Below, piece after piece: positions 8,431-33,297 of a DNA stretch of 33,297 bases. Location: contig VGXJ01000001.1 in assembly GCA_016873375.1 (NCBI GenBank), positions 1 through 33,297 of the forward strand, read 5' to 3'. Numbering within the stretch: the first letter of the stretch is position 1; every line of letters starts with the position of its first letter. The position numbers and the translations under genes are program-made. The notes beneath the pieces were generated by a model. It worked only from the letters and a program-made list of their open reading frames with translations. It was not told the origin of the DNA and did no database searches. The stretch is from Phycisphaerae bacterium (GTDB taxonomy: Bacteria; Planctomycetota; Phycisphaerae; Phycisphaerales; SM1A02).

Positions 8431-8434
8431 CGCG

Positions 8435-8773
8435 TCATACGGGGCAGGGACCCCAAGCGCTGAGCATGATGCCCAGGTCTTCGCCGTTGGTGGTGTTGTC
8501 TCCGTTGACGTCGCCGGCGGCCGAGTTCCAGCCGGAGAGGAGAAGGCCAAGATCGGCACCTCCGACCACGCCGTCGCCGTCGAGGTCGGCCGGGCAGGCA
8601 GGTGCACCGGAGCCTGAACCTGAGCCCATGACCAAGTTCCCGCTCGAAAAGTCATCGTTCTTCGGAGCCTGAAGGCTGCCTTGGTCGCGATCGCGAGGCG
8701 CCGGAAGGGCGGCCGGAATGAGAGCCGCAAGACCGATTGAACAGACGGCAAGAGTGGCGACAGCCTGAGTCAT
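8435..8773 (-). CDS. Small secreted protein consisting only of signal peptide, linker and a Cys-framed dockerin-like module
   Basis: ATG 8773 (the ORF-track start at 8809 is a TTG). Signal-peptide-like MTQAVATLAVCSIGLAALIPAALPAP, then a GSGSGSG linker. The module is CPADLDGDGVVGGADLGLLLSGWNSAAGDVNGDNTTNGEDLGIMLSAWGPCP: two DxDGDG/DxNGDN Ca-loop-plus-helix halves bracketed by Cys. The same module ends the genes at 26267..28351 and 29706..>33297. Confidence 0.7.
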   Translation of the reverse strand: MTQAVATLAVCSIGLAALIPAALPAPRDRDQGSLQAPKNDDFSSGNLVMGSGSGSGAPACPADLDGDGVVGGADLGLLLSGWNSAAGDVNGDNTTNGEDLGIMLSAWGPCPV

Positions 8774-8823
8774 GGTGTGGAACCATACCTCTCCCTGCGT
8801 GCAGGGCAAAACCTACTTGTCGC

Positions 8824-8838
8824 AATTTCTGGAATTTC
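8824..8838. promoter_or_regulatory. Copy 1 of shared pseudo-palindromic motif (AATTTCTGGAATTTC), upstream of the dockerin mini-gene
   Basis: Core TTTCTGGAA at 8826-8834, in the 84-nt spacer between the DUF2304-like stop (8858) and ATG 8773. It is 51-65 nt upstream of that ATG. In gene orientation it reads GAAATTCCAGAAATTGCG. Confidence 0.35.
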
Positions 8839-8857
8839 ACCGGGCGTGCTTGGTCCG

Positions 8858-9208
8858 TCAGGGACGCCGAGGGGTTTGGTCCCGCTCTGCCTCGTCCAGG
8901 GCCATCCTGCGAACCAAGAGGGTCATGTCCCGGCGGACCGCTCGGACGCGCATGTACATGCTGAGAAACCCCCACGAGGTGCCGAGGACCAGCACATACA
9001 GGACCAGATCGGCTCCACGCCCGATCCCGAGGAACCGTGCCAGCTGGGTGGTCCAATCGGGCTCGACCACGAACACTGCGCCAAGGCAGGCGCCCCCAAC
9101 CAGGAGCCCAGCAAGGATCTTCGGAAGCGCTCCCCGGCTTGCCATGACGAGGCCAAGCACCACGGTGGCGACAAGGGCAGCCAGCAGGACAACTTGGAAC
9201 ACGCTCAT
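8858..9208 (-). CDS. Small integral membrane protein, DUF2304-like
   Basis: 116 aa with three or more hydrophobic helices (VVLLAALVATVVLGLVMA, ILAGLLVGGACLGAVFVV, DLVLYVLVLGTSWGFLSMYM) and a basic tail. Its ATG overlaps the stop of the upstream GT2 (9205-9208). Size, topology and GT2 pairing match DUF2304 as I remember it. Confidence 0.6.
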   Translation of the reverse strand: MSVFQVVLLAALVATVVLGLVMASRGALPKILAGLLVGGACLGAVFVVEPDWTTQLARFLGIGRGADLVLYVLVLGTSWGFLSMYMRVRAVRRDMTLLVRRMALDEAERDQTPRRP

Positions 9209-9921
9209 CGAAACACTCTCCCTACGGCGTAGTGAAGCAGGATGCGGGCGCTCGCCGAGGCGCGCTGACCCTTGGCCATCGAATAGGCCGTGTACTCGAT
9301 GGTGGTCGGGAACTGCTTGACGCGCATGCCGGATCGGGCGATGAGGTCAATGAGTTCGCTCGCATGTGCCATGCGATCAGAGCGGAGCTCGCACCGACGT
9401 GCCGCCTCGTCGGTCAGCACGCGCAGTCCGTTGTGCACATCGTTGAGCCCGATGCCGCTGGTCACCCGGTGCATGAGTGCAGCCAGCCGGATGAGCGCTG
9501 CCCTCATGGGCGGAATGCGTGAGTTGCCGGCGAATCGATCGCCGAGCGCGATGTCACAGTCACCCTTGGCCACGGCAAGCGCCATGGCGACCAGATCATC
9601 CACGCGATGCTGGCCATCTGCGTCGAAGTGCGCGATCCTTCGCGCGCCCCGAGCGAGCGCGAAGTCGGTGCCGGTCTGCAGGGCGGCCCCCTGGCCTCGA
9701 TTGACTGCGTGGCGCAGGGCATGGGCAGCGGTCTTGCGGATGGCATCCCACGAAGCGTCGGAGGATCCATCGTCGACGGCCACCACATTCCTGAATCTGG
9801 ACCGCAGTGCATCAAGCACCTTGCCGACCGCAGCACACTCGTTGAAGACAGGAACGACCACCCAGGTCCCTTCAAGGAGTCCTTCGGCCGTGCTGTCGCT
9901 TGGTGCCGATTGGGGTAACAC
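9205..9921 (-). CDS. Family 2 glycosyltransferase, polyprenyl-phosphate sugar synthase-like (DPM1/GtrB-like), soluble form
   Basis: 238 aa with GTG start. GT-A motifs: VVVPVFNE, VVAVDDGSSD, AHFDADGQH (DxD), NGLRV. There are no C-terminal TM helices. Confidence 0.8.
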   Translation of the reverse strand: MLPQSAPSDSTAEGLLEGTWVVVPVFNECAAVGKVLDALRSRFRNVVAVDDGSSDASWDAIRKTAAHALRHAVNRGQGAALQTGTDFALARGARRIAHFDADGQHRVDDLVAMALAVAKGDCDIALGDRFAGNSRIPPMRAALIRLAALMHRVTSGIGLNDVHNGLRVLTDEAARRCELRSDRMAHASELIDLIARSGMRVKQFPTTIEYTAYSMAKGQRASASARILLHYAVGRVFR

Positions 9922-9974
9922 TCTCGGAAACTACCATCGGCAGGATCGATCGCAAGGAACAGTCCACCATCACC

Positions 9975-11744
9975 ATGACAGCACCGGCCACAGGTTCCAG
10001 GTCCATGATGTTGGCAGCTTCGGTCCTTTGGCTGATCGTCATCCTGGTGTGGCGCCCCACGGTGGCAGCACCGTTCGTGCACGATGATGTGGTGCACATC
10101 ATCGACCGTGAGAATCAGATCGATGCGCCATGGGCATCATGGGGCCAGCTCGCGATCGGTCAGCGTCCCCTGGTGCAGGTGACGCTCGGAGTCAATCATG
10201 CGCTCGGCGGCATCGATCCCCGCGGCTACCACGCACTCAACATCGGCCTGCACGGACTTGCATCGGCCCTCTGCCTGATCGTGCTCTGTCGCGCTGCTGC
10301 ATTGCTGATCGAGCGAGGTGCGATCGCCATGCATCCATCGCTCGCCTTCGCGGTGTGCTGCGGGGCAGCCACGCTGTGGGCGCTCCACCCCGTGCAGACG
10401 GCCAGCGTGAGCTATGTCATCCAGCGTGCGGAAGTCCTCGTGGGGCTCTGCACCTTCGTTGCCATCCTCGGACTGATGCGGTTCGCGCTGCCCGGGTCCT
10501 CGATCGCCTGGGGCGTAATCGCTCCCGTAGGGTGCGCTCTGGCCCTTCTCTCCAAGCCATCTGCGGTGTCGGTGCCGTGCATCGTGCTTGCCGTCGATGC
10601 AGCCATCTGCTCAGGGTCGATCGTCGCGGCATGGCGCAATCGCTGGCCCATGCACCTCGCCTGCTTCCTTCCGCTGCTGCTGCTGATTCCCCTGGGCGTC
10701 ATCGGTCCGCTGCTTTCGGGCGATGGCATGCCCCGCGCAGCGGGACTCGGGCTCCCCGGCATCGGGCCCCTCGCCTATGCCTGGGCTGAAGTGGGTGCCA
10801 TCGGGATCTATGCAGCGGAGGTGGTGGCGCCGACACTGCTCAGCATCGATCACGGCTGGACCATCATCGAGGGCGCAGCATGGCCGAGGCCGCTGGGAAT
10901 CGTCGCCATCGTTGCCGCGTTCGGGACCATCGTCGTCGGTCTGCGGCGCAATGCGTGGTGGTGGATCGTGCCGGCCCTGTCCGTGCTCGCGCTGCTTCCC
11001 TCATCAAGCGTCATGCCGCTGCGGGATCCCGTGGCGGACCACCGGCTCTACCTCGCACTGCTTGGGCCAGTCATCGCCTTCGTGACGGTCGTCGCATGGT
11101 GGGGATGGACCCGTCCCGGCATGGCGAGGATCGCTGCCGTTGGCGTCATCGCCCTGTCGATCGTGGGGGCGGCGATCTCGACGATCCGTCGAAATGATGA
11201 CTGGTGCCATCCGGCCCGGCTGTGGGACGGTGTGCTGGCGCTTCGGCCGGATGACTCCGGCGCGCTCATGAATCGTTCGCTCTGTGCGCTGGCTGCCGGC
11301 GATGACGCTGCTGCGCGGGCCGACGCGTTGGCCGCCCTTTCGATCCGTCCGGCAGACGGGCCAGCCATGGCCATGATCGGCCTGCTCGATGTTCGTGCGG
11401 GTCGTCACGAGGAGGCGCTTGTCTCGCTCATCCGGGCTGAAGAGCTCGGCATCCGCACTGCCAGCGTGCGTGGTGCCAAGGGCGATGCCTACCGCGCGCT
11501 CGGTCGGTACGAGGAAGCCGCGGATGCCTATGCGCGTGCATCACGGCGCTCGCCTTCGTCCGACCAGTTGATGCTGCTGCACGGGCTGACGCTGGCCGAG
11601 TGCGGTCGCGATGCCGAGGCGATGGATGTGCTGGTCGCGCTTGCAGCTCGATCCGATGACGAGCGAATCACGGGACGGGCACGGGAAGCGATCGAGCAGT
11701 GCACGAAGCGACGCAATTCGTCCATCGACGGAGTCCGGCCATGA
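9975..11744 (+). CDS. Polytopic membrane glycosyltransferase-like protein (PMT_2/TMTC-like GT-C) with C-terminal TPR repeats
   Basis: ATG 9975 is preferred over the TTG at 9900, which would overlap the divergent GT2 gene. N-terminal pattern FVHDDVVHIIDRENQI ... RPLVQVTLGVNHALGGIDPRGYHALNIGLHGLASAL is followed by many hydrophobic helices. The C-terminal ~170 aa are TPR-like (SLCALAAGDDAAARADALAALSIRPADGPA, GDAYRALGRYEEAADAYARASRRSP). Confidence 0.65.
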   Translation: MTAPATGSRSMMLAASVLWLIVILVWRPTVAAPFVHDDVVHIIDRENQIDAPWASWGQLAIGQRPLVQVTLGVNHALGGIDPRGYHALNIGLHGLASALCLIVLCRAAALLIERGAIAMHPSLAFAVCCGAATLWALHPVQTASVSYVIQRAEVLVGLCTFVAILGLMRFALPGSSIAWGVIAPVGCALALLSKPSAVSVPCIVLAVDAAICSGSIVAAWRNRWPMHLACFLPLLLLIPLGVIGPLLSGDGMPRAAGLGLPGIGPLAYAWAEVGAIGIYAAEVVAPTLLSIDHGWTIIEGAAWPRPLGIVAIVAAFGTIVVGLRRNAWWWIVPALSVLALLPSSSVMPLRDPVADHRLYLALLGPVIAFVTVVAWWGWTRPGMARIAAVGVIALSIVGAAISTIRRNDDWCHPARLWDGVLALRPDDSGALMNRSLCALAAGDDAAARADALAALSIRPADGPAMAMIGLLDVRAGRHEEALVSLIRAEELGIRTASVRGAKGDAYRALGRYEEAADAYARASRRSPSSDQLMLLHGLTLAECGRDAEAMDVLVALAARSDDERITGRAREAIEQCTKRRNSSIDGVRP

Positions 11745-12745
11745 TGGCTCCGTCAACAATCCGGGATGTGACGATGGTGATCCCCGCACGCGATGCCATG
11801 CGGACGATCGGCATGTGCCTCGATGCAGCACTGGTCGTCCGCGACCGGCCCGGATCGCGGCTGGACCGGATCGTGCTCGTCGATGACGGCTCTCGCGACG
11901 GCACCGCACAAGCAGCCACGAGCCGGGGGATTGAAGTCGCGTCGGGTCAGGGCGGGGGGCCTGCCGCGGCCCGCAACCTCGGTTGGCGCGTCGCGAGCAC
12001 GGACCTCGTCTGGTTCGTCGATGCGGATTGTGTCGCCGCGCCCGATGCGCTGGAGCGATTGCTGCCTGCGTTCGATGATGGTGCAGTCGCCGGCGTCGGT
12101 GGGACCTATGGGATTGCTCCGGACGCCACGCTGCTGGAGCGTCTGATCCACGAGGAGATCATGGTGCGGCATGCGCGCATGCCGGCAGAGGTGGATTTCC
12201 TCGCGACCTTCGATGTGGTGTACCGGCGCACCGTGCTGGAAGGGCTGAAGGGATTCGATGAGCGCTATCTGAAGGCGCAGGATGCCGAGTTTGCCTTCCG
12301 TGTCATCGAGGCTGGCCACCGGCTTCGCTTCGTGCGATCGTCCGTCGTGCAGCATTTCCATGCCGATCGCCTCTCGCGCTACCTGAAGGTGCAATGTGCC
12401 CAGGGGCGCTGGCGGGTCGCGCTTCACCTTGAGCACCGAGGCCGTGGCCGGCGCAATTCCTACAGTTCCGCGCTGGACCATCTGCAGCCATTCGTGCCCA
12501 TGGCCATGGTCCCTGCGCTGGCGGCTCCGTGGCTTGGGACGCCGTGGTGGGTGGCCGTACTGCCGGTGGTCGTGCTGTTCCTGCTGCAGCTTCCGATGGC
12601 TGCGGCGATGTGCAGTCTCGCGGGCCCATCGATGATCGCCTTCGTGCCGCTTGGCGTGGTCCGGACCTTCGCCCGTTGTCTTGGGCTCTGTCTGGGCGTC
12701 TGCGATCGGCTGCTTGGGCGCAGCATGCCGGGACGTGCATCATGA
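11741..12745 (+). CDS. Family 2 glycosyltransferase with C-terminal TM helices
   Basis: ATG 11741 overlaps the previous stop (ATGA). Motifs: VTMVIPARDA, IVLVDDGSRDGT, GPAAARNLG, VWFVDADC (DxD). C-terminal hydrophobic segments: WWVAVLPVVVLFLLQLPMAAAM and MIAFVPLGVV. Confidence 0.85.
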   Translation: MMAPSTIRDVTMVIPARDAMRTIGMCLDAALVVRDRPGSRLDRIVLVDDGSRDGTAQAATSRGIEVASGQGGGPAAARNLGWRVASTDLVWFVDADCVAAPDALERLLPAFDDGAVAGVGGTYGIAPDATLLERLIHEEIMVRHARMPAEVDFLATFDVVYRRTVLEGLKGFDERYLKAQDAEFAFRVIEAGHRLRFVRSSVVQHFHADRLSRYLKVQCAQGRWRVALHLEHRGRGRRNSYSSALDHLQPFVPMAMVPALAAPWLGTPWWVAVLPVVVLFLLQLPMAAAMCSLAGPSMIAFVPLGVVRTFARCLGLCLGVCDRLLGRSMPGRAS

Positions 12746-15264
12746 GCGTGCTGCCGATGCTGTGCTGGCTCGCCTTGGTCGCCCCGGGCGTTGCCGTCGT
12801 TCGGCGATGTGCACCGGCCGCTCTGGGAGGCGGCGCTGCCGCTGCGCTTGGCGTGGGATGGTTGGCAGCCTTTGCTGTGCTCGCGCCGTGCCTGGTGCTG
12901 GCCTATCTCCTGCACGCACCGACACCCCTGGTGGCGATCCTCGTGACGCTCGTGGTGGTCTGGGGTGTGTTCGACGCGCTGCGACATGCGTCGTGGAAGG
13001 GCGTGGTCCGCAGCGTGCCGCCGGTGATGCTGCTGGCTGCAGCCGTCGTGGTGCTTGACGCGGTCCTCGCCGAGCGAGTCGGTGCCATCCTCGACAACGA
13101 CGCTCGCGTCCATGTGGCCAGGATCCGCTTCATCCTCGATCACGGATTCTCCAACAGCGATCCATTCGTCCGCGCGACCGGTGAGTTCCCCTATCCGCTC
13201 TATCACACGAACCTGCTCCATGCACTGCATGCATGCATCGCATGGATCACCGGGCTGGATCCCCTGGAGGTGTGGTTCGGTTCGCTCGGAGCGTCACGGC
13301 TGATGATTGCAGGCGCTGCTGCCTGGACGGCGTGGTCCCTCGTCGGTGGCAGGTGGGCTCCATGGGTGGCGGCGGTCCTTGCCGTGCTGTCACGATCCGT
13401 GGTGGACTTCACCCTCTATCCAAACCAGCTGGCACCCTGGTTTGCCGTCTTGATGACCGTGGGTGTGGTCGCCATGGTGCTGGCGTGGGATCTCCCCGCA
13501 CGCCGTGCGATCGTCGTCTGCATGCTGGCCAACCTGGTGGTGGCCATGATGCACCCGCTCTATGCCGGCTTCGTGCTCGTGATGCTCGTGCCTGTGCTCG
13601 GTGCAGTGGCCGCCGTGCGCTCGCTGCGCTGTGTCGGCAAGCGCTCGACGCCCGTTGCCTGCGCGGTCGGCCTCGTCCTTGCCGCAGCACCCATGCTCGT
13701 TGCGGTGAAGGCGATGACCGCGGGCCCCGGGCGCGCCGCGGATGTCGCCTCACCCTCGGCTTGGGAGTGGAACCACTGGAAGACGCAGGCAACGGCCTCT
13801 CCCGCACCTTCAGCCGGGGCGGGGACCCCCGATGCACTCGGTCGGGCCCGTCGCACGGCGATCCACCGCCAGGATGGATTCACGCTGACTCGGCAGGACG
13901 ACCATCTCTTCATCGCGCGCAATTGGGGACGCGGCTTCACAGGCGGCTGGGGCGGCGTGGTCGGCTGGCGCCTCTGGACGGCGATGGCGGCCACGCTCCT
14001 CGCCCTTGCCGTGCTCGGAAGACCCCAGACGCTCGTTGCTTTCGGCGCGATCGTGGTGGTGCTCACCGTGATGACGGTGCCGATCCTCTGCACCACGGCC
14101 ATTGGCTTCCTTGGTGCGCAGTGGATGATCCTCCGATTCGAGGCACTGGCCGCGATCGTGTGGGGCGCGCTGGCCCTTCCGGGGATGGCGGCAGTGTGCG
14201 AACGCTGCATCGGGTCACGACGGTTCGTGGCGGTGCCTGTCGGGCTCGGCGTGACAGCCTTGTCGATCTGGGTCGGCGCCGCGAATGCAGGGCAGGACAC
14301 GTGGGATCGCGTGGGCCGTTGGTGGGACCGTGCCATGGCCTCGGAGGGTGCGCGACAGGGCGCAGCCTTCGATGGCCTGATGGCGAACCAAGCGTGGATG
14401 GAGGGCTGCATGCCCAAGGACGCCGTGGTGGCCTGTGGGCGCCTGACCGGCACATGGGCCGCGATGCTCCGGGGGCCCCGTTTGGTGTGCAGCGAGCGCA
14501 GCTCGACGGGTGTTCCCTCGGCAACGACACGCGTGCTTCATGTGACCGAGATGCTCGATGATCGAACGGATGAGGAACGCCGTGCCGAACTCTTCCGGCA
14601 CTATGGTGTCACGCATGCGCTCCTTGGCGGCAGTGCGCCCGGCTGGATCGACTACTGGGCGGATGACATCAAATCGGGTCAAGGGCATCGGCTGATCCGG
14701 CTTCGTTCCCAGCCTCATCCAATGAAACTGTGGGAACGGAAGGTTGCCGACGCGTCGCGTCTGGTGCTGAAGGGCTGCGCCGATCTGGCCGAGGTCGAAC
14801 TGCTGGATCTGGTCGATGAGCGTCCGCAGGCGTGGCGCGGCTGGTTTGTGCTGGGCAACGCCAAGTGGGAGCTGGGCCAGATCGAGGCGGCGGAGTCGTG
14901 CTACGAGATGGCCCGTCGCCAGGATCCCACGGAACCGATGCCGGACTTGATGCTCGGCAATTGTGCGGAGCGGCTGGGCCGGCCGGACGAGGCCAGCATG
15001 TACTTCGAGTCTGCCGAAGCCCGTGCACTCAAGAGGTCTGATCGAACGACGGCAGCATCGGCGAACTTCAACCGGGCGAATGGCCTGCGGCGGCAGGGTC
15101 GACTCGTCGAGGCCGAGTCGGCGTATCGTCAGGCCGTGGTCCTCGATCCATCGCATCCTGGTGCGAGGCGTGAGCTGGAGCAGGCATCGCTCTGGATGGC
15201 GCCCGTTCCGCTCATGGATGACGCTGGCGCCGACGCTCTCGATGGGGGCGAGGTCAAGCCGTGA
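12742..15264 (+). CDS. 841-aa polytopic membrane protein with C-terminal soluble and TPR region; function unknown (possibly GT-C-like or glycan-handling)
   Basis: ATG 12742 overlaps the previous stop (ATGA); the ORF-track start at 12529 lies inside the upstream gene. Roughly 12 or more hydrophobic helices over ~560 aa, with an early loop ILDNDARVHVARIRFILDHGFSNSDPF. C-terminal TPR-like repeats: WFVLGNAKWELGQIEAAESCYEMARRQDP, GNCAERLGRPDEASMYFESA, NGLRRQGRLVEAESAYRQAVVLDPSHP. No family recognised. Confidence 0.55.
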   Translation: MSVLPMLCWLALVAPGVAVVRRCAPAALGGGAAAALGVGWLAAFAVLAPCLVLAYLLHAPTPLVAILVTLVVVWGVFDALRHASWKGVVRSVPPVMLLAAAVVVLDAVLAERVGAILDNDARVHVARIRFILDHGFSNSDPFVRATGEFPYPLYHTNLLHALHACIAWITGLDPLEVWFGSLGASRLMIAGAAAWTAWSLVGGRWAPWVAAVLAVLSRSVVDFTLYPNQLAPWFAVLMTVGVVAMVLAWDLPARRAIVVCMLANLVVAMMHPLYAGFVLVMLVPVLGAVAAVRSLRCVGKRSTPVACAVGLVLAAAPMLVAVKAMTAGPGRAADVASPSAWEWNHWKTQATASPAPSAGAGTPDALGRARRTAIHRQDGFTLTRQDDHLFIARNWGRGFTGGWGGVVGWRLWTAMAATLLALAVLGRPQTLVAFGAIVVVLTVMTVPILCTTAIGFLGAQWMILRFEALAAIVWGALALPGMAAVCERCIGSRRFVAVPVGLGVTALSIWVGAANAGQDTWDRVGRWWDRAMASEGARQGAAFDGLMANQAWMEGCMPKDAVVACGRLTGTWAAMLRGPRLVCSERSSTGVPSATTRVLHVTEMLDDRTDEERRAELFRHYGVTHALLGGSAPGWIDYWADDIKSGQGHRLIRLRSQPHPMKLWERKVADASRLVLKGCADLAEVELLDLVDERPQAWRGWFVLGNAKWELGQIEAAESCYEMARRQDPTEPMPDLMLGNCAERLGRPDEASMYFESAEARALKRSDRTTAASANFNRANGLRRQGRLVEAESAYRQAVVLDPSHPGARRELEQASLWMAPVPLMDDAGADALDGGEVKP

Positions 15265-16220
15265 CCGCGACCGATCTTGATGTCTCCATCGTGATCGTGA
15301 GTTACAACACGGTCGGGCTCCTTCGCAACTGCCTTCAATCGATCGAGGCCTCCGTTGCACCGTTCTCGCACGAGACCATCGTGGTGGACAATCAGTCTCG
15401 GGACGGCAGCGCTGACATGGTCGAGCGCGAGTTTCCGTCGGTCCGCCTGATCCGCGCCGAACGCAATCTCGGATTCGCGGGCGGGAACAATGCCGCGTTC
15501 CGTGGAGCGCGCGGCCGGCTCGTCTACTGCCTGAATCCCGACACGGTCAGCCATCCGGGATCGCTGGCCACCCTCATCAGGGTCATGGACGCGGATCCAT
15601 CGATCGGATACCTGGGGCCGAAGCTCCTGAATCACGATGGCAGCCACCAGTGGAGCGCGTACCGATTCCACACCGTGCTGTCGAGTTTCGTGAGCTGGTC
15701 GATGCTTGGGCTCGATCGCCGATTCCCGCAGTCACGCCACTGCCAGACGCTGCACTACCAGCACGGGCACGACACTGCCTTCGACGCGGATTGGCTGACG
15801 GGTGCGGCCATTCTCACACGCCGCATCGTCATTGATCAGGTGGGCGGCTACGACGAAAGCTACTTCCTCTATGCCGAGGAGATCGAGTGGTGCTGGCGCA
15901 TGCATCGGGCAGGTTGGCGCGGTCGTTACGAGCCGAGCGCGGTGGTCACGCACATCCGTGCTGCAAGCACGTCGCATCTTGACGACTCGCACGCCTTCCA
16001 CGGCCACGATCCATCGCTCCTGATCGAGAGCCATCGGCGACTGGCGCGCCAGACGCTCGGGCCGTTGGGTGCGCTGGCCACGCACGCGCTCCACCTGTCA
16101 GGCGTCACGCTTGCATGGATGCGCAACCTTCCGCCGATGCCCCGTCGCAATCCAGCGACGCGTCGCAAGGCATGGCTGTGGATGCGCTATCTCGCCCGTC
16201 GATCGCCAAGCCGACGCTGA
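15261..16220 (+). CDS. Family 2 glycosyltransferase (resembles the rhamnosyltransferase-type GT2 subgroup)
   Basis: GTG 15261 overlaps the previous stop (GTGA). Motifs: VSIVIVSYNTVGLLRNCLQSI, IVVDNQSRDGS, NLGFAGGNNAA, CLNPDT, YAEEIEWCWR. Confidence 0.85.
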   Translation: MTATDLDVSIVIVSYNTVGLLRNCLQSIEASVAPFSHETIVVDNQSRDGSADMVEREFPSVRLIRAERNLGFAGGNNAAFRGARGRLVYCLNPDTVSHPGSLATLIRVMDADPSIGYLGPKLLNHDGSHQWSAYRFHTVLSSFVSWSMLGLDRRFPQSRHCQTLHYQHGHDTAFDADWLTGAAILTRRIVIDQVGGYDESYFLYAEEIEWCWRMHRAGWRGRYEPSAVVTHIRAASTSHLDDSHAFHGHDPSLLIESHRRLARQTLGPLGALATHALHLSGVTLAWMRNLPPMPRRNPATRRKAWLWMRYLARRSPSRR

Positions 16221-16226
16221 GCACGC

Positions 16227-22860: not shown

Positions 22861-22920
22861 GATGCCGGGCCGAGTCTAGCCGTGCGTGCCTCGCCAAGGA
22901 TTCAGGGGGGCCGTACGCTC

Positions 22921-25280: not shown

Positions 25281-25286
25281 GAGAGC

Positions 25287-26180
25287 ATGCCTTCGCCCCT
25301 GCACCGGCACCTCCGGGACTTCACCTACGCCGCACGCACGGCGTGGCGCAGCTTCGGCAGCCGTCGCTGCCCCGGTCCGTGGGAGCCTGGCAGCCAGCAT
25401 CGGGAGTCGCTGCTCCTGATCACGCTTGACTCGTGTCGGTGGGACACCTTCGAGAGCACTCCCACGCCAAACATCGATGCAGTGGGCACGGCACACCGTG
25501 TGATGGCGCCATCCCACTTCACCTTCGGCTCGCATGCCGCCATGTTCGTGGGCTTCACCCCCGGCGATGGGTTGCGCAGCGAGCCCATCGTGAACCCGAA
25601 GTTCGGCAAGCTGGTCAGGCTCCACGGCGGGGGAACCCCTTCAACCAGCCGCGATCGATTCCTGCTCCGGGGCCGGTCCATCGTGGATGGGTTCAATCGC
25701 ATTGGGTACATCACGGCTGGTACGGGTGCCGTCAAGTGGTTCGATGATGGCTCCTTGGCGGGAGCTGGGTTGGTGCGCGACTTCCAGCATTACATGTATG
25801 CGCGCAACTGCTGGTCGCTCAGGCGGCAACTCGGGTTCCTCGCTGACAAGGTCGGGGGAGCCCGCCAGCCGGTCTTCTGCTTTTTGAATGTGGGTGAGAC
25901 TCATGTTCCCTACTGGCACGAGGGGGCGGCGTGGGATCGTGGGACCGTGACTTGCCGCGCCTTCGCGGAGGGGAACGATCGCACCGAGAGCGCACGACGG
26001 CAGGGTGAGTGCCTGCAGTTCATCGATCGGGCGCTCGGACCGATGCTTGCGGCCTTCGCCAACGCCAACATCATGGTGTGCGGCGATCATGGCGATGCAT
26101 GGGGCGAGGACGGTGCCTGGGAACACGGCTTTCATCACTCCAAAGTGATGGAGGTGCCGATGACCTTCCGCATCTCCTAG
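25287..26180 (+). CDS. Alkaline-phosphatase-superfamily metalloenzyme (type I phosphodiesterase/NPP-like or sulfatase-like), no signal peptide
   Basis: 297 aa. Metal-site-like LLLITLDSCRWD. Nucleophile region APSHFTFGSHAAMFVGFTP resembles the NPP motif T-F-P-N-H...TG..P. Distal metal site VCGDHGDAWGE. I see no C/S-x-P-x-R formylglycine motif. The subfamily is uncertain. Confidence 0.5.
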   Translation: MPSPLHRHLRDFTYAARTAWRSFGSRRCPGPWEPGSQHRESLLLITLDSCRWDTFESTPTPNIDAVGTAHRVMAPSHFTFGSHAAMFVGFTPGDGLRSEPIVNPKFGKLVRLHGGGTPSTSRDRFLLRGRSIVDGFNRIGYITAGTGAVKWFDDGSLAGAGLVRDFQHYMYARNCWSLRRQLGFLADKVGGARQPVFCFLNVGETHVPYWHEGAAWDRGTVTCRAFAEGNDRTESARRQGECLQFIDRALGPMLAAFANANIMVCGDHGDAWGEDGAWEHGFHHSKVMEVPMTFRIS

Positions 26181-26183
26181 TCG

Positions 26184-26197
26184 TTTTCCGGAAAATT
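26184..26197. promoter_or_regulatory. Copy 2 of shared motif: perfect 12-nt palindrome TTTTCCGGAAAA (+TT), upstream of the triple-PA14 gene
   Basis: Starts 4 nt after the TAG at 26178-26180. Its centre is about 77 nt upstream of ATG 26267. TTGCAA follows at 26202-26207. It lies within the AT-richest stretch of this part of the window. Confidence 0.35.
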
Positions 26198-26266: not shown

Positions 26267-28351
26267 ATGAACCGCACCACCATATCGATCCTCTCCCTTG
26301 CGCTTCTCTTCGGCGCACCCGTGCTGGCACAGGACTGCAACCTCGATGGATTGCCTGACTCGCAGCAGGTCAATGTGCAGGGATTGACCGCGCAGTACTT
26401 CGCCAACAGGACATGGAGCGGTCCTCCGGCGGCTGTGCGTGTCGACCTGGGCGGTGCGGGCAGTTTCGAGCTCTCCAACTGGTCGCTTCCAGCCGGGGTG
26501 CCGAGCGACGAATTCAGCGTGCGCTGGATGGGGGGCCTGCAGTTCAACCAGACTGCGGCTTTCCAGTTCCGCATCAGCGCTGACGACGCGTACCGCCTCT
26601 ATCTCGATGGCGTTCTCCTGGGCAGTTCCAACGGCGTGGTCGGCAACCAGATCGTGCCCCAAACGCCCATCACTGTGACGGCGGGGATCCATCACTTCCG
26701 CATCGAGTTTCGTGAGGACTACGGCGAAGCCAAGATCAAGGTCGAGCGCAAGATCTCCACGGCGACCACCTGGAGCGTGATCGCGAACACGAATTTCAAG
26801 GCTGGGGTGGATGCGAATGCCAACAACGTCCTCGATCTGTGCGATTCAGGCGACTGCAACAGCAACTTCCTGCCCGATGCCATCGACATCGCTCAAGATC
26901 CCTCGCTTGACTGCAACTCCAACGCGATCCTCGACACCTGCGAGACGACCGCAAACGATTGCGACCAGAATGGCGTCCCCGACACCTGTGAGGCCTCGGC
27001 ATTGGGTCTTGTTGGGTACTACTTCGGCACCAACAACTTCACCGGACCGGTCATTGCGAAGCGCTTGGACGGCAGTGGACCACTGGGTATCGACTTCAAC
27101 GTGACCGATGGGAACAACAATGCGTGGATTCCTTCGAATGTGCCCACAGATAACTTCTCCGTGCGCTGGGGTGGGGCCCTGGTCGTGGAGACGAGCGGTT
27201 ACTACGACTTCCAGATGCAGTCGGATGACCTCGGAAGCCTGTTCATCGACGGGGTGCTCCTCTTCAGTTCCAACACCGGAACGGAGGAACGCGGGCCCTT
27301 CTATCTCGAGGCCGGTCGGCGGCTGATGTCGCTGACGCTTCGTGAGTTCGGTGGTGACCAGCGCATGCGACTCCGTTGGCGCCAAAGCGGAACGGCAGAT
27401 TGGTTCCCGCTGCCGGGAACGATGTATCGCCCCTCCTACGACGGTAACGGCGACGGCGTCGCCGATGTCTGCCAGTCTGGCGACTGCAACGCCGACGGCA
27501 CTCCCGATGGATTCGAGTTGGCCAACGGCCTGGCGACCGATTGCGATGCAGACAACCTGCTCGACTCCTGTGAAGTGGCGTCAGGCGCCACAGACTGCAA
27601 CGCCAACGGCATCCCTGACTCCTGCGAGTCGACATCGACTGGACTGTTCGGGCGCTACTTCGCGCGTCTTGGTTCAAGCAACCCTGCAGATCCGTACCGA
27701 CCGGGCCAGAGGCTGGCGGTCCGCCGGGATGCGCGTGTGGCCTTCGCGGATGGGGCGTGGCTGCCCCAGGGGATACCCACCGACAACATCATCGTGATCT
27801 GGACCGGCTCCATCACCACCGGTCCAGAGTCCGGGCTGTGGACCTTCCGGACCGACTCCGATGACGGAGCGCGATTGACCATCGATGGGGCCACCGTCAT
27901 CGATGGATGGCTCGGCAATGCAGGAGTCCGAACTGGCTCGATCACGCTGCAGGGCAACACGACCTACGACTTCAAGCTTGAACTCCACGAGGGCAACGGC
28001 GGGCAGCAGTGCTTCCTCGACTGGTCGCCCCCGTCCTCGGGTGGTTCTGCGTTCAGCATCGTCCCAACCACGGCATTCCGCATGGCCACGCCCGATTGCA
28101 ACAGCAACAACATCCCTGATGATTGCGACATCGCCTCAGGTACGCTGCCCGATCCCGGGTTCGGCATCCCCGATCCCTGCGCATCGAGTGCATGCCCGGC
28201 GGATCTCGACCTCGATGGACTGATCGGTGGCGGTGATCTCGGCATCCTGATTGCCAATTGGGGGACAAGCGGTGGCGACATCGATGGTGACGGCACATCC
28301 AACGGGCAGGATCTCGGTGTCATGCTGTCTGCATGGGGGCCTTGCCCCTGA
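26267..28351 (+). CDS. Secreted protein with three PA14 domains, Cys-framed TSP3-like repeats and a C-terminal dockerin-like module
   Basis: ATG 26267 gives a signal peptide MNRTTISILSLALLFGAPVLAQ. PA14-like units start at GLTAQYFANRTW (26381), GLVGYYFGTNNF (27005) and GLFGRYFARLG (27641). Each unit has the FSVRW.G / DD..rL.iDG pattern (DEFSVRWMGG..ADDAYRLYLDG; DNFSVRWGGA..SDDLGSLFIDG; IIVIWTGS..SDDGARLTIDG). The units are separated by C[DN]xNGxPDxC-type repeats (26840-26992, 27470-27628). The C-terminus is CPADLDLDGLIGGGDLGILIANWGTSGGDIDGDGTSNGQDLGVMLSAWGPCP (28193-28348). Confidence 0.85.
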   Translation: MNRTTISILSLALLFGAPVLAQDCNLDGLPDSQQVNVQGLTAQYFANRTWSGPPAAVRVDLGGAGSFELSNWSLPAGVPSDEFSVRWMGGLQFNQTAAFQFRISADDAYRLYLDGVLLGSSNGVVGNQIVPQTPITVTAGIHHFRIEFREDYGEAKIKVERKISTATTWSVIANTNFKAGVDANANNVLDLCDSGDCNSNFLPDAIDIAQDPSLDCNSNAILDTCETTANDCDQNGVPDTCEASALGLVGYYFGTNNFTGPVIAKRLDGSGPLGIDFNVTDGNNNAWIPSNVPTDNFSVRWGGALVVETSGYYDFQMQSDDLGSLFIDGVLLFSSNTGTEERGPFYLEAGRRLMSLTLREFGGDQRMRLRWRQSGTADWFPLPGTMYRPSYDGNGDGVADVCQSGDCNADGTPDGFELANGLATDCDADNLLDSCEVASGATDCNANGIPDSCESTSTGLFGRYFARLGSSNPADPYRPGQRLAVRRDARVAFADGAWLPQGIPTDNIIVIWTGSITTGPESGLWTFRTDSDDGARLTIDGATVIDGWLGNAGVRTGSITLQGNTTYDFKLELHEGNGGQQCFLDWSPPSSGGSAFSIVPTTAFRMATPDCNSNNIPDDCDIASGTLPDPGFGIPDPCASSACPADLDLDGLIGGGDLGILIANWGTSGGDIDGDGTSNGQDLGVMLSAWGPCP

Positions 28352-28391
28352 TGGTGCTGCCCGGTTGCATGGACACCGATAGACTCTTTCC

Positions 28392-29609
28392 ATGGGCTCG
28401 TCCCGCGTCACTCCGGCCTCTGTTGGTGCGTCGGATGTCCGCGTCGCCTTGCTCGATCTCAAGGCTTCGACGCAGGATGTGCTCGCGGCCGTCCCGGGCC
28501 TGACGGGGTTCCGCCCTGTCGACATCGAGGGCGCGCTCGGCATCGACCTCAAGTTGGCGTGGAAGCTCTCGCACCTCGCCCACGCCGGTGACCCCTTTGA
28601 TGCCGTGCGCCACCTCCCCGGCGAACTTGCAGCCAAGATTGCGGCCCAGGCAGCAGCCAAGAAGGGTGTCCCGGCCGCCAAGACCGAGGCCATGATGGCT
28701 GCACTGTTTCGCGTGCAGTCGCTTGGGATCGCCTGGTCGGGGGGCAAGCGTGCCTTCGGCCTGCTGAGCGCGAACATGGCCACCAACGCCGATGGCCGAT
28801 TCGCTGTGGATCGGCGCAAGGAGCTCTTCAGCGGAGGCATGCATGTCTGGGGGATGCGCGCTGCGAACGCCTTCCGCGTCGATGTGCTGCATCCGGCTGC
28901 ACGGGGGAAGATGATCGACTGCCTCACGCTTCGGGGCTTCGCGGATCTGGAGCGGCTTCGCTTTGACGCGGCCTGGCGATTCGATGCCCCGGTGGTGGTC
29001 GATGACCGAGGCCGAGCCAGCCGCCGGGCAAGGCTGGAGCGCCCCGCCGGGACCGCCTCTTCATCGGCTCCTTTCATCATCGATGAACTGTGCAGTGGCG
29101 CGAGCAAGACTCTCAAGCGCGTGGCCGAGGATGGATGCCTGCACCTGATGCCCGGCGAGGTCGGCCGCGCCAGCGCCGGCACACTGGTCCAGGGCGCCGT
29201 GATGCGCCATGTGCAGCCGCAAGGCTTGAGCAGGGATCACTCGGGGCTGTTTCAGGTCTTTCGCGCGCGGACGCCCTGCGTGATGCAGGAGTTCGTGGTC
29301 GGCGTTCATCGCAGCCTCGTGCCCGAGGGCGTGCAGCCGGATGCGGTGGTGTACGGAGATCTTTATGGCGCGCCCGAACGCCGCATGCCGTACCACTTGG
29401 GTGACCGGTTGCACTGTGGCGCCACCGTCCAAGTACTCGCGGCCAGGTCACGATGGCGCATCGAGGGTGTCGTGGGAGTCGAGGGTTGGATCGACCGGCA
29501 GCTTGACGCACTCGGATGGGATCGGGACGACATGCTCTGGTTCCGCGCAGCCGTGGCCTATCCACCAATCCCGAGCACGCTGGTGGTGCAGTTGCCGCAA
29601 GCGGATTGA
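28392..29609 (+). CDS. Hypothetical protein, 405 aa, no signal peptide or TM helix, no recognised domain
   Basis: Long ORF with the strong third-position G/C codon bias of the neighbouring genes. It starts 40 nt after the PA14 gene stop. The sequence (MGSSRVTPASVGASDVRVALLDLKASTQDVL...) matches nothing I recognise. Confidence 0.6.
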   Translation: MGSSRVTPASVGASDVRVALLDLKASTQDVLAAVPGLTGFRPVDIEGALGIDLKLAWKLSHLAHAGDPFDAVRHLPGELAAKIAAQAAAKKGVPAAKTEAMMAALFRVQSLGIAWSGGKRAFGLLSANMATNADGRFAVDRRKELFSGGMHVWGMRAANAFRVDVLHPAARGKMIDCLTLRGFADLERLRFDAAWRFDAPVVVDDRGRASRRARLERPAGTASSSAPFIIDELCSGASKTLKRVAEDGCLHLMPGEVGRASAGTLVQGAVMRHVQPQGLSRDHSGLFQVFRARTPCVMQEFVVGVHRSLVPEGVQPDAVVYGDLYGAPERRMPYHLGDRLHCGATVQVLAARSRWRIEGVVGVEGWIDRQLDALGWDRDDMLWFRAAVAYPPIPSTLVVQLPQAD

Positions 29610-29627
29610 CGGCTGCATCACGCCTCG

Positions 29628-29641
29628 CTTTCTGGAAATTG
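29628..29641. promoter_or_regulatory. Copy 3 of shared motif (CTTTCTGGAAATTG), upstream of the large PA14/LamG gene
   Basis: Core TTTCTGGAA at 29629-29637, in the 96-nt spacer between TGA 29607-29609 and ATG 29706. Its centre is about 72 nt upstream of the ATG. TTGCCC follows immediately (a -35-like TTGC, as in copy 1). Confidence 0.35.
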
Positions 29642-29705
29642 CCCTGCATCCGGCCTGATTGTCGGGCATACTTCAACGGCTTCCTCCCAAGGATCGCAAG
29701 CACCC

Positions 29706-32700
29706 ATGATCATCACGACCCTTCTTGCTGCTCTGACCCTCATCCCTCCGGACTGCAACGGCAATGGCGTGCAGGATTGGCAGGACATCGCCGATGCGAC
29801 CTCTCTCGATGTCGGCAATGACGGCGTGCCGGACGAGTGCCAGGATTGTGCGGATGGCAACAACAACGGCCTGCCCGATGCCGACGAGGTCGGGAACGGT
29901 CTGGTGGGGGAGTACTGGAGCGACCAGTCCAACTCGTCCGGAACCTACAGGCGCCGCGTCCTGAGCCGTATCGATCCGACCGTGAGCTTCGACTGGGGCA
30001 ACGGCTCGCCTGATCCGTCGGTGCCCCAAGACTCCTTTTCAGTGCGCTGGACCGGCACACTCATCGCGCCCACGACCGGGCCATGCACCTTCTTCTCGCG
30101 CAGCGATGATGGCTTCCGGCTGTGGATCGACGGCCTGCCCGTGATCGATGCGTGGGTGGCGCAGTCCGCCTCGGTTTGGTATTCCGGATCCGTCAATCTC
30201 GTCGCCGGGCAGCGCTATGCCTTCCGCGTCGACTATTACGAGGGTGGCGGGGATGCGAGGGCGTTTTTCGAGTGGCGTCCGAGCGGGCTCGACCGCAGCG
30301 TCGTACCCACCAGTGCCCTTTTGGCGATGACCGATGTCGATGCCGACGGCGTGCCTGATACCGCGCGGGATTGCGACGGCGATGGCATCTCGGATGGGGC
30401 CGAACTTGAGGCCGGTACCGCGACGGACTGCAATGACAACTGCCTCGTCGATGACTGTGAACCGGATGTTGCCGAAGTCCTCGGCTACTGGCGTTTCGAG
30501 AATGACGGGCAGTCCGTGCTCGACAGCGGCCCGTACCGTCTGGATGGCCAGGGCGTTTCGCTCTTGGCCGGCAGCGGAGTCCCTCTAGGCATCGTTCCCG
30601 CCACAGCAGCCCGGAATGACCGCAGTACATCCATTTCACCCTCTGGTGGAACGCCCGGCCAGGCCCTGATCCCGGATCCGCAGGGAGTCCTCGCCTCGGG
30701 AGGCGACAGTTTCACCGTGGAAGCCTGGGTCAAGCTTGATGTGCTGGCCTCGGGTGCGGCTGCGGATCAACGCCAGGTGCTTGTGCAGCGCAAGCCGACC
30801 AATCAAGGCGACAAGTTCGCAGACTTCATCTTCTGCGTGCAAGCGGGGGACTATCCCGGCCAGGCCATTCGAAACTTCGGCAATTTCGGCGGCAGCCGTC
30901 ACCTCACCATGCTGTTCGGGAATGGCGGTGCAGCGAGTGCGAGCTTCTGGACGGTGACGAGCGATCTGTCCATCAGCGACAACAACTGGCATTATGTGGC
31001 GGCCATCGTCGATGCCGAACAGAGCAGGGTGACCTTCATCATCGACCAGCGCATCGATGTGGTGACCTACCTCGACCTCGGGCGGGTCGCCGTGGCCGCG
31101 CCGCTGTTGGTTGGTGCCCACACCAATTCGACTGGCCAGTTCAACCAGCACCTTCGGGGCAGCGTGGACGAGCTTCGCATCAGTGCAGGCACGGTGCCCG
31201 TGGCGGCGCTCCTGAATCGAGCGGGTACCAGCGATTGCGATGGAACCGGGCTCCCCGACAGCTGCGACATCGCGCAGGGTGCCATCGACTGCGACGAGAA
31301 TGGCATTCCCGACGATTGCCAGCCTGACTGCGACCGCAACGGCATCGCGGATGTCTGTGACATCGAAAATGGCGCGCCCGATTGCAACGACGACGACATC
31401 CTGGACGCATGCCAGCTGGCAGGCAACGACTGTGACGCCAATGGCGTGCCTGACGACTGCCAAGCCGCGCAGGGTGACTGCGACGACAACGGCAAGCTCG
31501 ATGTCTGTGAGGTTGCGGATGACCCATCCATCGACTGCGACGACAGCGGCACCCCGGACATCTGCCAGATCGAGCAGGAGTTCATCTATGGCATCAGCGA
31601 CACCGGCGCCGAGTTCGGCGTCCGCGCCGACGGCAGCCACATGGCGTGGCTCACCAGTTTCAGGGTGTTGGGCGATGCAAGTTCGATTGATGCGATCGAC
31701 ATCATGTTCGTGTTCCTGCCCGATGACCACCCTGTCAAGGTCTGCCTCTGGTCCGACCCCAACAACGACGGGGATCCAACCGATGCCCAGCTCCTCGCGT
31801 CGGCCAATGGCGTGGCGGGCCCCCTGAGCCAGTTCAGGCGCTTCGAACTCCCCGAGACCGTCATCGGACCGAACGGAACCAACTTCTTCGTGGGGGCGAT
31901 CACCACCACCGCCTCGTCGTACTTCCCGGCTCCGCTGGACAGCAGCGGCAATGCAGTCAACCGTCGTTCCTGGATCGTCGGGAGCAACTCGCCGATCGAC
32001 CCCAATGACTTGAGTGCCAATGCGATCGAGTTCGAACCCATCGAGGAGGCGCTCCCGTTCCCCGGCAAGTGGCTGATCCGTGGCGTGGCCGTTGCCCGAA
32101 ACGGGGATTGCAACGAGAACGAGGTCCTCGATGTGTGCGACATCAGTGCCGGAACGAGCAGCGATGTGGACAACTCCGGGCGCCCCGACGAGTGCGAGGA
32201 TTGCAACGAGAACGACATCCTCGACTCGGTCGACATCGCCGCAGGAACCAGCGACGACTGCCAGGACGACCTTGTGCCTGATGAGTGCCAAGTCACTGGG
32301 TTCGCCGGTGATTGCAATGATGATCTTGTTCCGGACGAGTGCCAACTGGATGGCAATGACTGCAACGGCAACGCCCAGCTCGATTCCTGCGATCTTGCCC
32401 TCGGGACCAGCAGTGATGCGAATGGGTCAGGCATCCCCGATGAGTGCGAGGACTGCAACGGCAACGGCACGCTCGACAGCGCGGACATCGCCACCGGATT
32501 CAGCCTCGACTGCCAGCCCGACGGCGTCCCTGACGAGTGCCAGCTCGGTACGCCTCCCACATCGGTCCAGTACAAGGTCGATGATGGATCCCGTGAGGGC
32601 AACTACGGGGTCTCCGGCCAGTCGGACATGGTTTGGCTGAACGCCTTCACCGTGGAACCCGGCGGTGAGTGGATCGGCAGCATCTCGGTGGTCATCGGCA

Positions 32701-33297
32701 ATGGTTTCGCCGGCATGCCGTACGAGGTGATCCTGTGGAACGACCCCAACTCGGATGGACTCCCGGATGACGCGCAGGTCATCGCCCGGGCACCGGCGCG
32801 TGTAAGCGATGGCAACACCAGCATCTTCAACGATGCCCAGATCGAGCCGACGCTCGTCGGTCCGGTGGGCACCCGGTTCTTTGCCGGAGTGCTCTACCAG
32901 GATTCCTACGGCAACCAAGCGGTCATCCCGGCTGACCTCAGCGGCTCGTTGAATCGCAGCTGGATCGCGATCGACGGCATCAACTCGGTCAACCTCAACG
33001 ACCTGTCGGCTGCCGCCATCTACGGGTACCTGACCCAGGCGAACACGCTGTTGCGTGCCAACGGCTTCGATGGAGTGCTGCCGCTCGATTGCAACGGCAA
33101 TGAGATTCCCGACTCGTGCGATCTCGCCAATGGCCAGGGGACCGATGGCAACGGCGATGGCATTCCAGACCAGTGCCAGAGCTGCCCCGCCGACCTCAAC
33201 GGCAATGGGCAGGTCGACGGTGCCGATCTCGGCATCATCCTCGTCAACTGGGGCGGATCCTCGGGTCAAGCCGACTTGAACGGCGACGGCCAGATCG
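29706..33297 (+). CDS. Large secreted multidomain protein (5' partial; more than 1197 aa in window): PA14 + LamG/ConA-like + 2x unassigned domain + Cys-framed TSP3-like repeats + dockerin-like C-terminus
   Basis: This gene is absent from the ORF track because it has no stop inside the window. My hand translation from ATG 29706 stays open to 33297, and I checked the frame at 30483, 31563, 32520 and 33240. N-terminus: [15 protein letters not shown]. PA14 (29898 to about 30330): [57 protein letters not shown]. LamG-like (about 30477-31220): [42 protein letters not shown]. Repeat arrays at 31233-31568 and 32106-32543. Paralogous domains at 31581-32099 and 32565-33086. The dockerin-like module [38 protein letters not shown] starts at 33183 and is cut by the window end. 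Confidence 0.85.
   Translation, partial: [1197 protein letters not shown]
31233..31568 (+). repeat. Array of 7 tandem protein-level repeats, DC[DN]xxGxxDxC[DEQ] (TSP type-3-like Ca-loop framed by two Cys)
   Basis: [84 protein letters not shown], spaced by 1-7 residue linkers. At DNA level this shows as recurring gactgcgac/gattgcaac...cccgac...tgc. Confidence 0.8.
32106..32543 (+). repeat. Second array of about 9 related repeats (some lack one Cys)
   Basis: [106 protein letters not shown]. Confidence 0.75.

Follow-up and report, generated by a model that had tools for sequence, protein, structure and literature searches.

When the genes for a glycan and the genes for secreted, dockerin-tagged proteins lie side by side on one contig, do they form a single surface system, or are they two systems that happen to be neighbours? 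The question is raised by the window analysed here, the first 33,297 nucleotides (nt) of contig VGXJ01000001.1 (assembly GCA_016873375.1), in which a glycan island (8858-26180) is accompanied by three genes, here called A, B and C, whose secreted products all end in the same Cys-framed dockerin module. A first-pass annotation of this DNA, made by a model from the sequence, had proposed that the island and the dockerin proteins belong together. The answer is divided. Taken as a class, dockerin genes show no enrichment near glycan clusters, whereas the specific association of the A family, and to a lesser extent of C-type proteins, with a core comprising a GtrB-like glycosyltransferase (GT) with its DUF2304 partner, a TMTC-like protein and a GT4 enzyme outlasts both rearrangement and sequence divergence. 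Overall, we lean slightly towards a functional link between the island and these dockerin proteins.

The G+C content of the window is 66%, at which raw lists of open reading frames (ORFs) are unreliable, and gene boundaries were therefore fixed from Pfam and NCBIfam matches, ORF work and the Joint Genome Institute (JGI) gene calls on identical contigs. Identical copies are present in the JGI lake-metagenome contigs Ga0194133, Ga0194118, Ga0194117 and Ga0194130 and in Logan assemblies, and the source is an uncultured, high-GC freshwater planctomycete, probably of the Phycisphaerae to judge by the taxonomy of all relatives found. From the left, the gene order runs from a MacB-type ABC system (FtsX permease, ATPase and HlyD) through fumC and rfbC/A/D/B to dockerin gene A, and then through DUF2304, the GtrB-like GT2 and the remaining island genes to dockerin gene B, a gene for a protein of 405 amino acids (aa) and dockerin gene C. 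Compared loci in related genomes and metagenomes are labelled with L-numbers (L001, L007 and so on up to L106).

Conserved association of protein A with the island

Protein A (8435-8773, minus strand) is a 112-aa protein in which a signal peptide, the motif P-x-NDD[F/Y] and a Gly/Ser linker precede the dockerin, with no other domain. The island had first been described as flanked by dockerin genes on both sides. This holds for B and C, which lie to the right of the block, while A lies inside the region, between the DUF2304/GtrB pair and rfbBDAC and on the same strand as both.

Orthologues of A border the island in L096/L098, L099, L101, L059 and L106. In L099, where the TMTC-like protein is 54% identical to that of the window, a 112-aa orthologue occupies the same site beside DUF2304, its upstream palindrome (described below) is conserved, and fumC follows directly. 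The rfbBDAC genes that separate A from fumC in the window lineage are absent there, A abutting fumC (L099 1-320), a difference that looks like a lineage-specific insertion or loss. In L101 (TMTC-like protein 41% identical), the island is rearranged to the order GtrB-DUF2304-GT2-GT4, and a 120-aa A-type protein with a signal peptide, P-x-NDDF, a Gly/Ser stretch and a dockerin is encoded after the GT4 gene. In L106, at 34% identity, a 129-aa A-type protein begins 33 nt after GT4, and a dockerin-bearing homologue of C (7e-107) adjoins the island. In L059, three GT2 genes and a GT4 gene come first, and behind them lie genes for a small A-type dockerin protein and for two homologues of C (1e-128 and 1e-38). 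A Gly/Ser/Thr-rich segment stands directly before the dockerin in all A orthologues.

Among the 169 dockerin ORFs collected, small A-type proteins with NDD[F/Y] were found in the window and in L059 only, the other 79 dockerin loci having none; the sole other match to this pattern lies inside an 861-aa ORF of L047. Every A-family member found sits at an island edge. Comparison of related genomes, which the first-pass annotation had put forward as the way to check its proposal, thus bears out a link for particular families (A, and C to a lesser extent) and not for dockerin genes generally. The novel feature of this locus is that a cargo-less dockerin protein, and likewise C-type PA14 proteins, have stayed attached to a bacterial TMTC-like glycosylation core. 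In the closest loci (L007, L009 and L014, with 405-aa proteins 61-67% identical to that of the window), gene order is unchanged all the way from the ABC exporter to C, with B and the 405-aa gene in between.

Two further observations concern small proteins and neighbours of this kind. A separate dockerin-only family of 82 aa, with a signal peptide and a dockerin and without NDDF, is encoded just downstream of the lipoyl synthase gene lipA in lake Phycisphaerae (L103 3956-4204; L104 10001-10249; L105 10001-10249), with or without a single GT4 gene and with no island. Between the A-type gene of L101 and a gene for another dockerin protein lies one for a signal-peptide-bearing Sel1-like repeat protein (1928-2809).

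The dockerin module and its abundance

Proteins B and C carry the module at the end of much longer chains. Protein B (26267-28351, plus strand; 694 aa) has a signal peptide, three PA14 stretches (Pfam PA14, 1.4e-39) separated by Cys/Asp repeats, and the C-terminal dockerin. Protein C (plus strand) begins at 29706 and runs beyond the window end at 33297; it combines PA14, LamG and Cys/Asp TSP3-like repeats with the dockerin and is complete, at 1213 aa, on locus L001, where a 4HBT thioesterase gene is next downstream. Between residues of about 560 and 1130 (31300-33100), C contains two copies of a domain of roughly 200 residues that has no Pfam match, with TSP3-like Cys/Asp repeats between them.

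That the three proteins end in the same module, as first noticed, is well founded. The modules of A, B and C share 25 invariant columns; each stands at the extreme C-terminus, is bracketed by Cys and contains two DxDxDG-type loops with a DLxxLLxxW helix after each, and all three proteins terminate in WGPC plus one or two residues ahead of the stop codon. The module is not new. It matches the GC-type dockerin of NCBIfam NF041540 (GC-type dockerin domain-anchored protein), a C-terminal, two-loop, Ca-binding, Cys-bracketed domain of about 55 residues. Against this model (cutoff 29 bits), C passes with 31.0 bits, and A (21.8) and B (14.2) fall below the cutoff yet align to profile positions 1-63 of 67; with Pfam Dockerin_1 (gathering score 22.9), C again passes (25.1), and A and B score 18.0 and 10.8. 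A, B and C are most probably members of the large group of Phycisphaerae surface proteins that carry a GC-type dockerin. The family model is silent on partners, glycan clusters and regulation, and we found no paper that uses its name.

Two known dockerin systems invite comparison. The type I dockerin of the clostridial cellulosome shares the duplicated Ca-binding loop-helix module; the window differs from it in phylum, in the Cys framing and in lacking both a cohesin and carbohydrate-active enzyme cargo, the cargo of A, B and C being PA14, LamG and Cys/Asp repeats or nothing at all. Closer at hand is the ‘planctosome’ hypothesis, put forward for the cohesin and dockerin proteins of freshwater Phycisphaerae (Andrei et al., 2019; PMC6461901). 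It has in common with the window secreted proteins of lake Phycisphaerae that are dockerin-tagged, carry TSP3-type repeats and are non-cellulosomal. It involves cohesin scaffolds and peptidase cargo, in contrast to the window, with its PA14/LamG or absent cargo and its glycan-gene neighbours; in agreement with the first annotation, none of the window proteins has a cohesin match in Pfam.

How common the module is was assessed in one genome per species by a dockerin pattern scan, and the best 80 loci (1.05 Mb) were used for neighbourhood counts; a protein search with a dockerin profile returned only proteins of at most 100 aa and was not used for sizing the family. The scan gave at least 598 pattern matches, 418 of them confirmed, nearly all in metagenome-assembled genomes of Phycisphaerae or other Planctomycetota. 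The 80 loci hold 145 ORFs with the module, which lies within six residues of the stop codon in 134 of the 145 and is Cys-framed in at least 104. The GC-type dockerin is therefore a very common C-terminal tag in Phycisphaerae and Planctomycetota. Per 33.3 kb around an index dockerin gene, 2.05 additional dockerin ORFs were counted, and half of the loci (40 of 80) hold two or more, so that three such genes in the window represent typical local density, not an excess over chance.

The same loci show how seldom dockerin genes lie near glycan genes. With the GT proteins of the window as phmmer queries, no GT-like ORF was found in 78 of the 80 loci, and a cluster of them in a single locus. Matches to a GT2-domain hidden Markov model were confined to L059 (four ORFs) and L064 (one), and matches to the GT4 query to L038, L053 and L059. 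These searches are less sensitive than Pfam, and they recovered all expected GTs in positive-control loci. The first-pass annotation had held that dockerin genes scattered genome-wide without enrichment near such clusters would speak against its proposal; no enrichment is seen in these loci, and a general co-localisation of dockerin and glycan genes is not upheld.

The probable glycosylation core and its TMTC-like protein

The part of the island that recurs in distant relatives begins with a trio. A small DUF2304 membrane protein (8858-9208, minus strand; Pfam 5.6e-18) is the partner of a GtrB-like GT2 (9205-9921, minus strand; Glycos_transf_2, 8.9e-17), which is probably of the polyprenyl-phosphate sugar synthase type. 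Divergent from this pair is the gene for the TMTC-like protein (9975-11744, plus strand). GT2 synthase, small membrane partner and divergent membrane-TPR gene are found together in the window, L099, L100, L101 and L106. The DUF2304 family presumably also includes mycobacterial Rv3632. Gtr systems and the mycobacterial PpgS (Rv3631)/Rv3632/Rv3779 system are built in this way too, from a GT2 polyprenyl-phosphate sugar synthase, a small membrane protein co-transcribed with it and a GT-C transferase (PMC3485146). Their known acceptors are O-antigen or arabinogalactan and not proteins, and the putative GT-C protein of the window differs in carrying TPR.

The TMTC-like protein has many transmembrane segments and is PMT_2-like, with C-terminal TPR (Pfam matches at residues 420-590). 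Its AlphaFold2 model (pLDDT 91.6) consists of an all-helical membrane domain followed by TPR. Across 41 aligned homologues, the motifs FVxDD, RP and LSK (D37, D38, P65 and K194) are near-invariant. TMTC1-4 carry the motifs DD, SYRP and KE(T/Q)xxT, and uncharacterised full-length prokaryotic homologues of them exist (PMC7801869); the motifs of the window protein correspond to M1, M2 and M4 of that work. Pfam PMT_2 (PF13231) is found in 8 of the 41 homologues (best 7e-10), one homologue carries TMTC_DUF1736 (PF08409), and some have been named protein O-mannosyl-transferase by JGI. A metagenome scan with the window protein returned only near-identical contigs (91-99%). The label TMTC/PMT-like, given in the first annotation, is thus supported by architecture, conserved motifs and homologues, though not by a direct Pfam match. 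As judged from sequence, the likeness to the metazoan protein O-mannosyltransferases TMTC1-4, whose TPR part is luminal, would lie in the polytopic GT-C-type membrane domain followed by TPR and in the DD of the first extracytoplasmic loop, the RP and the K; the substrates of those enzymes are cadherins, not dockerin proteins.

A palindrome upstream of the three dockerin genes

The window contains exactly three copies of the motif TTCYRGAAAWT: upstream of gene A as TTCCAGAAATT (8824-8834, minus strand), upstream of B as TTCCGGAAAAT (26186-26196, plus strand) and upstream of C as TTCTGGAAATT (29630-29640, plus strand). All copies are orientated with their gene and lie 50-72 nt before the ATG, and 0.02 copies would be expected by chance for this pattern, which was written after the sites had been seen. 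As the pattern is post hoc, independent support has to come from conservation in orthologous loci. The site of A is conserved as ATTCCGGAAAT in L099, that of B in L007, L009, L014 and L071, and that of C in L007, L009 and L014. In these loci TTTCCGGAAA, often extended to GATTTCCGGAAATC, is retained while the other intergenic DNA diverges, and the rare motif that had been noted ahead of the three genes is thus upheld.

A second conserved block, CATACT or CACACT, follows about 33 nt downstream of the palindrome, with a TTGC-type hexamer 16 nt before it. We read these as putative -10 and -35 elements; the palindrome would lie directly ahead of the -35. The predicted promoter of gene B would be TTGCAA and CACACT; at gene C, CATACT is the putative -10, about 33 nt after the palindrome; and for gene A, TTGCCC and TATGGT are the likely elements. 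The presumed -10 of A (TATGGT, and TAACTT in L099) ends 6-8 nt before the ATG, so that the mRNA may be leaderless or the start codon may lie further downstream. The spacing concerned can be seen at 8774-8800 of the window and at 653-690 of L099.

Several other identities for the palindrome were considered and set aside. It is not a general mark of dockerin genes, since the 1.05 Mb with 145 dockerin ORFs contain one copy, before a B orthologue, against 0.71 expected. A sigma-54 promoter does not fit, because the GG-N10-GC spacing is present only at site C and not at A or B. Nor does the -35 of an extracytoplasmic function (ECF) sigma factor, because no -10 is shared 16-17 nt downstream and some 33 nt separate the palindrome from the second conserved block. 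The palindrome also resembles what we take to be the CodY box (AATTTTCWGAAAATT), a likeness that was set aside because CodY is a Firmicutes protein.

The 405-aa protein family

Between B and C lies the gene for the 405-aa protein (28392-29609, plus strand), which has no evident signal peptide and belongs to a large unnamed family. No match to it was found in Pfam, NCBIfam or PDB sequences, even at E=10, which ruled it out as a recognisable helix-turn-helix regulator, and ten diverse family members gave no family match either. A profile search placed 2,103 representative clusters in the family at E<=1e-3 and 701 at E<=1e-30, nearly all of about 400-430 aa. The AlphaFold2 model (pLDDT 81) has a helical N-terminal domain and a beta-rich C-terminal domain with weak structural matches, and the most conserved part of the protein is a helix-turn-helix-like segment near the N-terminus (residues 42-64). 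The protein was also considered as the missing cohesin. This found no support: a signal peptide is not evident, and Foldseek gave only weak beta-sandwich matches, to aminopeptidase N-terminal domains (TM-score about 0.25).

Gene context gives a more consistent picture. In every context examined, a member of the family directly adjoins a dockerin-tagged gene. This is so in L011 (4786-6078), L022 (6201-7643), L029, L048 (6702-7997), L049 and L093 (4067-5407), all without a GT island. Moreover, a related palindrome, TTTCCCTAGGGAA(A), stands ahead of the neighbouring dockerin gene in L029, L045, L048, L049 and L093, and TTGCAG, a gap of 16 nt and TATnnT come after it; the variant upstream in L011 is TTTTCTGGAAAAA. 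Counted by context, the family adjoins dockerin genes in five places besides the window, and four of these have such a palindrome. Because of this adjacency and of the related palindromes, the 405-aa family is a candidate regulator of adjacent dockerin genes.

Palindrome variants with different spacing between the half-sites (TTTCC-N0/1/2/4/6-GGAAA) were observed at L048 8175-8190, L029 5996, L049 2079, L045 462 and L093 5531, as well as at L048 1248, L058 4063 and L091 8356, several of them followed by -35-like hexamers (TTGCAG or TTGACT). Such variable spacing is odd for a single dimeric regulator. In L011, a distant 405-aa homologue is followed by a 1058-aa hybrid kinase with PAS, HisKA and response-regulator domains (6223-9399), which hints at a signalling input to that dockerin-gene neighbourhood.

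A proposed mechanism and its alternatives

The locus brings together three things of known kinds, namely a glycan island of the Gtr-type/GT-C sort, surface proteins with GC-type dockerins and a small regulon that the palindrome would control. A mechanism that would connect them can be outlined as follows. The GtrB-like GT2, assisted by the small DUF2304 membrane protein, would load a sugar onto polyprenyl phosphate, and the PMT_2/TMTC-like GT-C protein with its periplasmic TPR would transfer this sugar to an extracytoplasmic acceptor. Cytoplasmic GT2 and GT4 enzymes, the fused ABC half-transporter and the second membrane-TPR protein would assemble and export a lipid-linked glycan, which sulfo-, methyl- and phospho-type transferases may decorate and which the neighbouring rfb genes may feed in the window lineage. 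Protein A, which lacks cargo, would be the dedicated partner of the island and most likely its acceptor, its Gly/Ser linker being glycosylated by the TPR-bearing GT-C protein; such a role for A as an O-glycosylation acceptor is plausible. B and C would contribute lectin-type PA14/LamG cargo. A, B and C would form a small regulon under a palindrome of about 10-14 base pairs, (GA)TTTCYRGAAA(TC), just upstream of a sigma-70-type promoter, with the 405-aa protein as candidate regulator. Taken as a whole, this combination of an envelope glycan or glycoprotein island, protein A as its partner or acceptor and a palindrome regulon of A, B and C is the explanation that we favour, tentatively and at somewhat less than even chances. 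The sequences show the gene content, the identity of the module, the conservation of the motif and the synteny; from these, the biochemical steps, the acceptor, the promoters and the regulator are inferred.

A number of observations weigh against it. The density of dockerin genes in the window is background, and dockerin loci generally lack GT genes, as described above. Among the closest relatives, collinearity runs on into unrelated downstream genes (4HBT, LCM, PBP and DUF4340), so that much of the synteny between close relatives is simply inherited, and all lineages with A at the island may come from a single clade of family rank. Among the island genes, none could be recognised as an initiating phosphoglycosyltransferase. 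The TMTC-like protein of the window has no direct Pfam match to PMT_2 or TMTC, and the top 50 Foldseek matches to its model were TPR proteins only, the membrane domain remaining unranked, so that this search did not confirm the putative GT-C fold. On the regulatory side, neither a DNA-binding family nor a structural match could be detected for the 405-aa protein, a scan of 8300-10050 around gene A for consensus sigma-70 promoters and terminators found nothing, and the palindrome is absent from the island's own promoter regions, so that there is no visible sign of co-regulation between the island and the three dockerin genes.

Many of these points would be expected if two ordinary systems had been inherited side by side, namely a common lipopolysaccharide, O-antigen or exopolysaccharide cluster and common dockerin proteins that are anchored by a cohesin-like protein encoded elsewhere, their closeness then reflecting no more than dense dockerin genes and the inheritance of gene order in this clade. 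This is the main rival and a substantial one, although on the whole we regard it as rather unlikely. The at least 418 confirmed modules, the 2.05 further dockerin ORFs per 33.3 kb with two or more in half of the loci, the 78 of 80 loci without GT genes, the inherited collinearity, the 82-aa dockerin-only family beside lipA with no island and the cohesin/dockerin pairs reported in freshwater Phycisphaerae (PMC6461901) are all in accord with it, and if it is true the locus is an ordinary polysaccharide cluster beside ordinary surface-protein genes. It does not readily account for the persistence of A at the island edge at 41% and 34% identity of the TMTC-like protein despite rearrangement, for the failure to see an A-type small protein away from an island in the collected dockerin ORFs, or for the recurrence of C homologues beside the island in L059 and L106.

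Two other explanations give the glycan a more direct role. A sulfated, methylated surface glycan could itself be the receptor, bound directly by the Ca-binding dockerins without a cohesin, which was the first of the two options of the first-pass annotation. The lack of a cohesin in the window agrees with this, as does the conserved proximity of A-type and C-type dockerin genes to the island, and Ca2+ could in principle bridge to an anionic sulfated glycan. Known dockerins bind protein cohesins, however, hundreds of dockerin genes lie far from islands so that a dedicated genomic link is not needed, and a dockerin-only protein without cargo has no obvious role as a displayed protein; we consider this explanation improbable. 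We give as little credence to the possibility that the dockerins attach elsewhere and that B and C use their PA14 and LamG domains to bind the polysaccharide which the island makes, for instance in cell-cell cohesion or sheath organisation. The presence of these domains and of C homologues beside the island in three lineages would suit such lectins, but PA14 proteins with dockerins are also encoded away from islands (the B-like dockerin ORFs of L029 and L048), and the conserved, cargo-less protein A is left unexplained.

The favoured explanation has a more specific form, in which TMTC-type O-glycosylation is dedicated to dockerin proteins, a glycan-bearing protein A docks its glycan onto the cell surface, and A is co-regulated with the PA14/LamG lectins through the 405-aa family. 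We regard this form as doubtful. If it were true, the product would be a dockerin-anchored glycoconjugate with the glycan as its cargo, and the 405-aa proteins would be a new family of palindrome-binding regulators. TMTC-like GT-C/TPR proteins are common among prokaryotes and, to our knowledge, no substrate is known for any of them; the conserved small secreted neighbour A offers a concrete candidate acceptor. A cargo-less dockerin protein tied to a glycan island also provides a route into how abundant lake bacteria build their surface, and the 405-aa family with its palindrome would, if confirmed, constitute a new regulatory module.

Other genes of the window

At the left end of the window, an ECF sigma factor gene of the Rhodopirellula/Verrucomicrobium family (192-734, minus strand) adjoins the MacB-type FtsX/ABC/HlyD export system, the pair spanning 192-3569; no link between it and the dockerin genes was found in the window. 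Further to the right, rfbC, rfbA, rfbD and rfbB (4997-8371, minus strand) encode dTDP-L-rhamnose synthesis, with Pfam matches to dTDP_sugar_isom (9e-62), NTP_transferase (3e-70), RmlD_sub_bind (3e-80) and GDP_Man_Dehyd/Epimerase (7e-78). The glycan gene block and the adjacent dTDP-rhamnose genes of the first-pass annotation are upheld by the Pfam, NCBIfam and ORF map, with two corrections: seven of the eight GT2-type genes that it counted are confirmed by Pfam and the eighth is not, and its ‘GT8-like’ gene, which encodes a 279-aa protein of unknown function (19424-20263), matches Glyco_transf_8 at E=0.043 only.

Downstream of the TMTC-like gene, and on the plus strand except where stated, the island continues with a membrane-anchored GT2 (Glyco_tranf_2_3, GT21-like; 11699-12745) and the second large polytopic membrane protein with C-terminal TPR (12742-15264), which has a weak DUF6541 match and orthologues of 840-845 aa in L099 and L100. 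The genes from 15261 to 25280 form the predicted set for cytoplasmic assembly and decoration. They comprise a GT2 (15261-16220), a Sulfotransfer_2 sulfotransferase (16227-16871), a Glyco_tranf_2_4 protein (16868-17713), a 573-aa fused ABC_membrane/ABC_tran exporter (17710-19431), the 279-aa protein, a methyltransferase (20260-21009), two GT2 genes on the minus strand (21006-21950 and 21940-22860), a further GT2 (22882-24045) and the GT4 (24042-25280). The exporter differs from the Wzm/Wzt O-antigen pathway, which uses a separate permease and ATPase, in being one fused protein of MsbA/PglK-type architecture. The last gene of the island encodes an alkaline-phosphatase-superfamily hydrolase of the STM4013/SEN3800 family (25287-26180; NCBIfam NF038075, 5.6e-33, below its cutoff), which also matches Pfam Sulfatase weakly.

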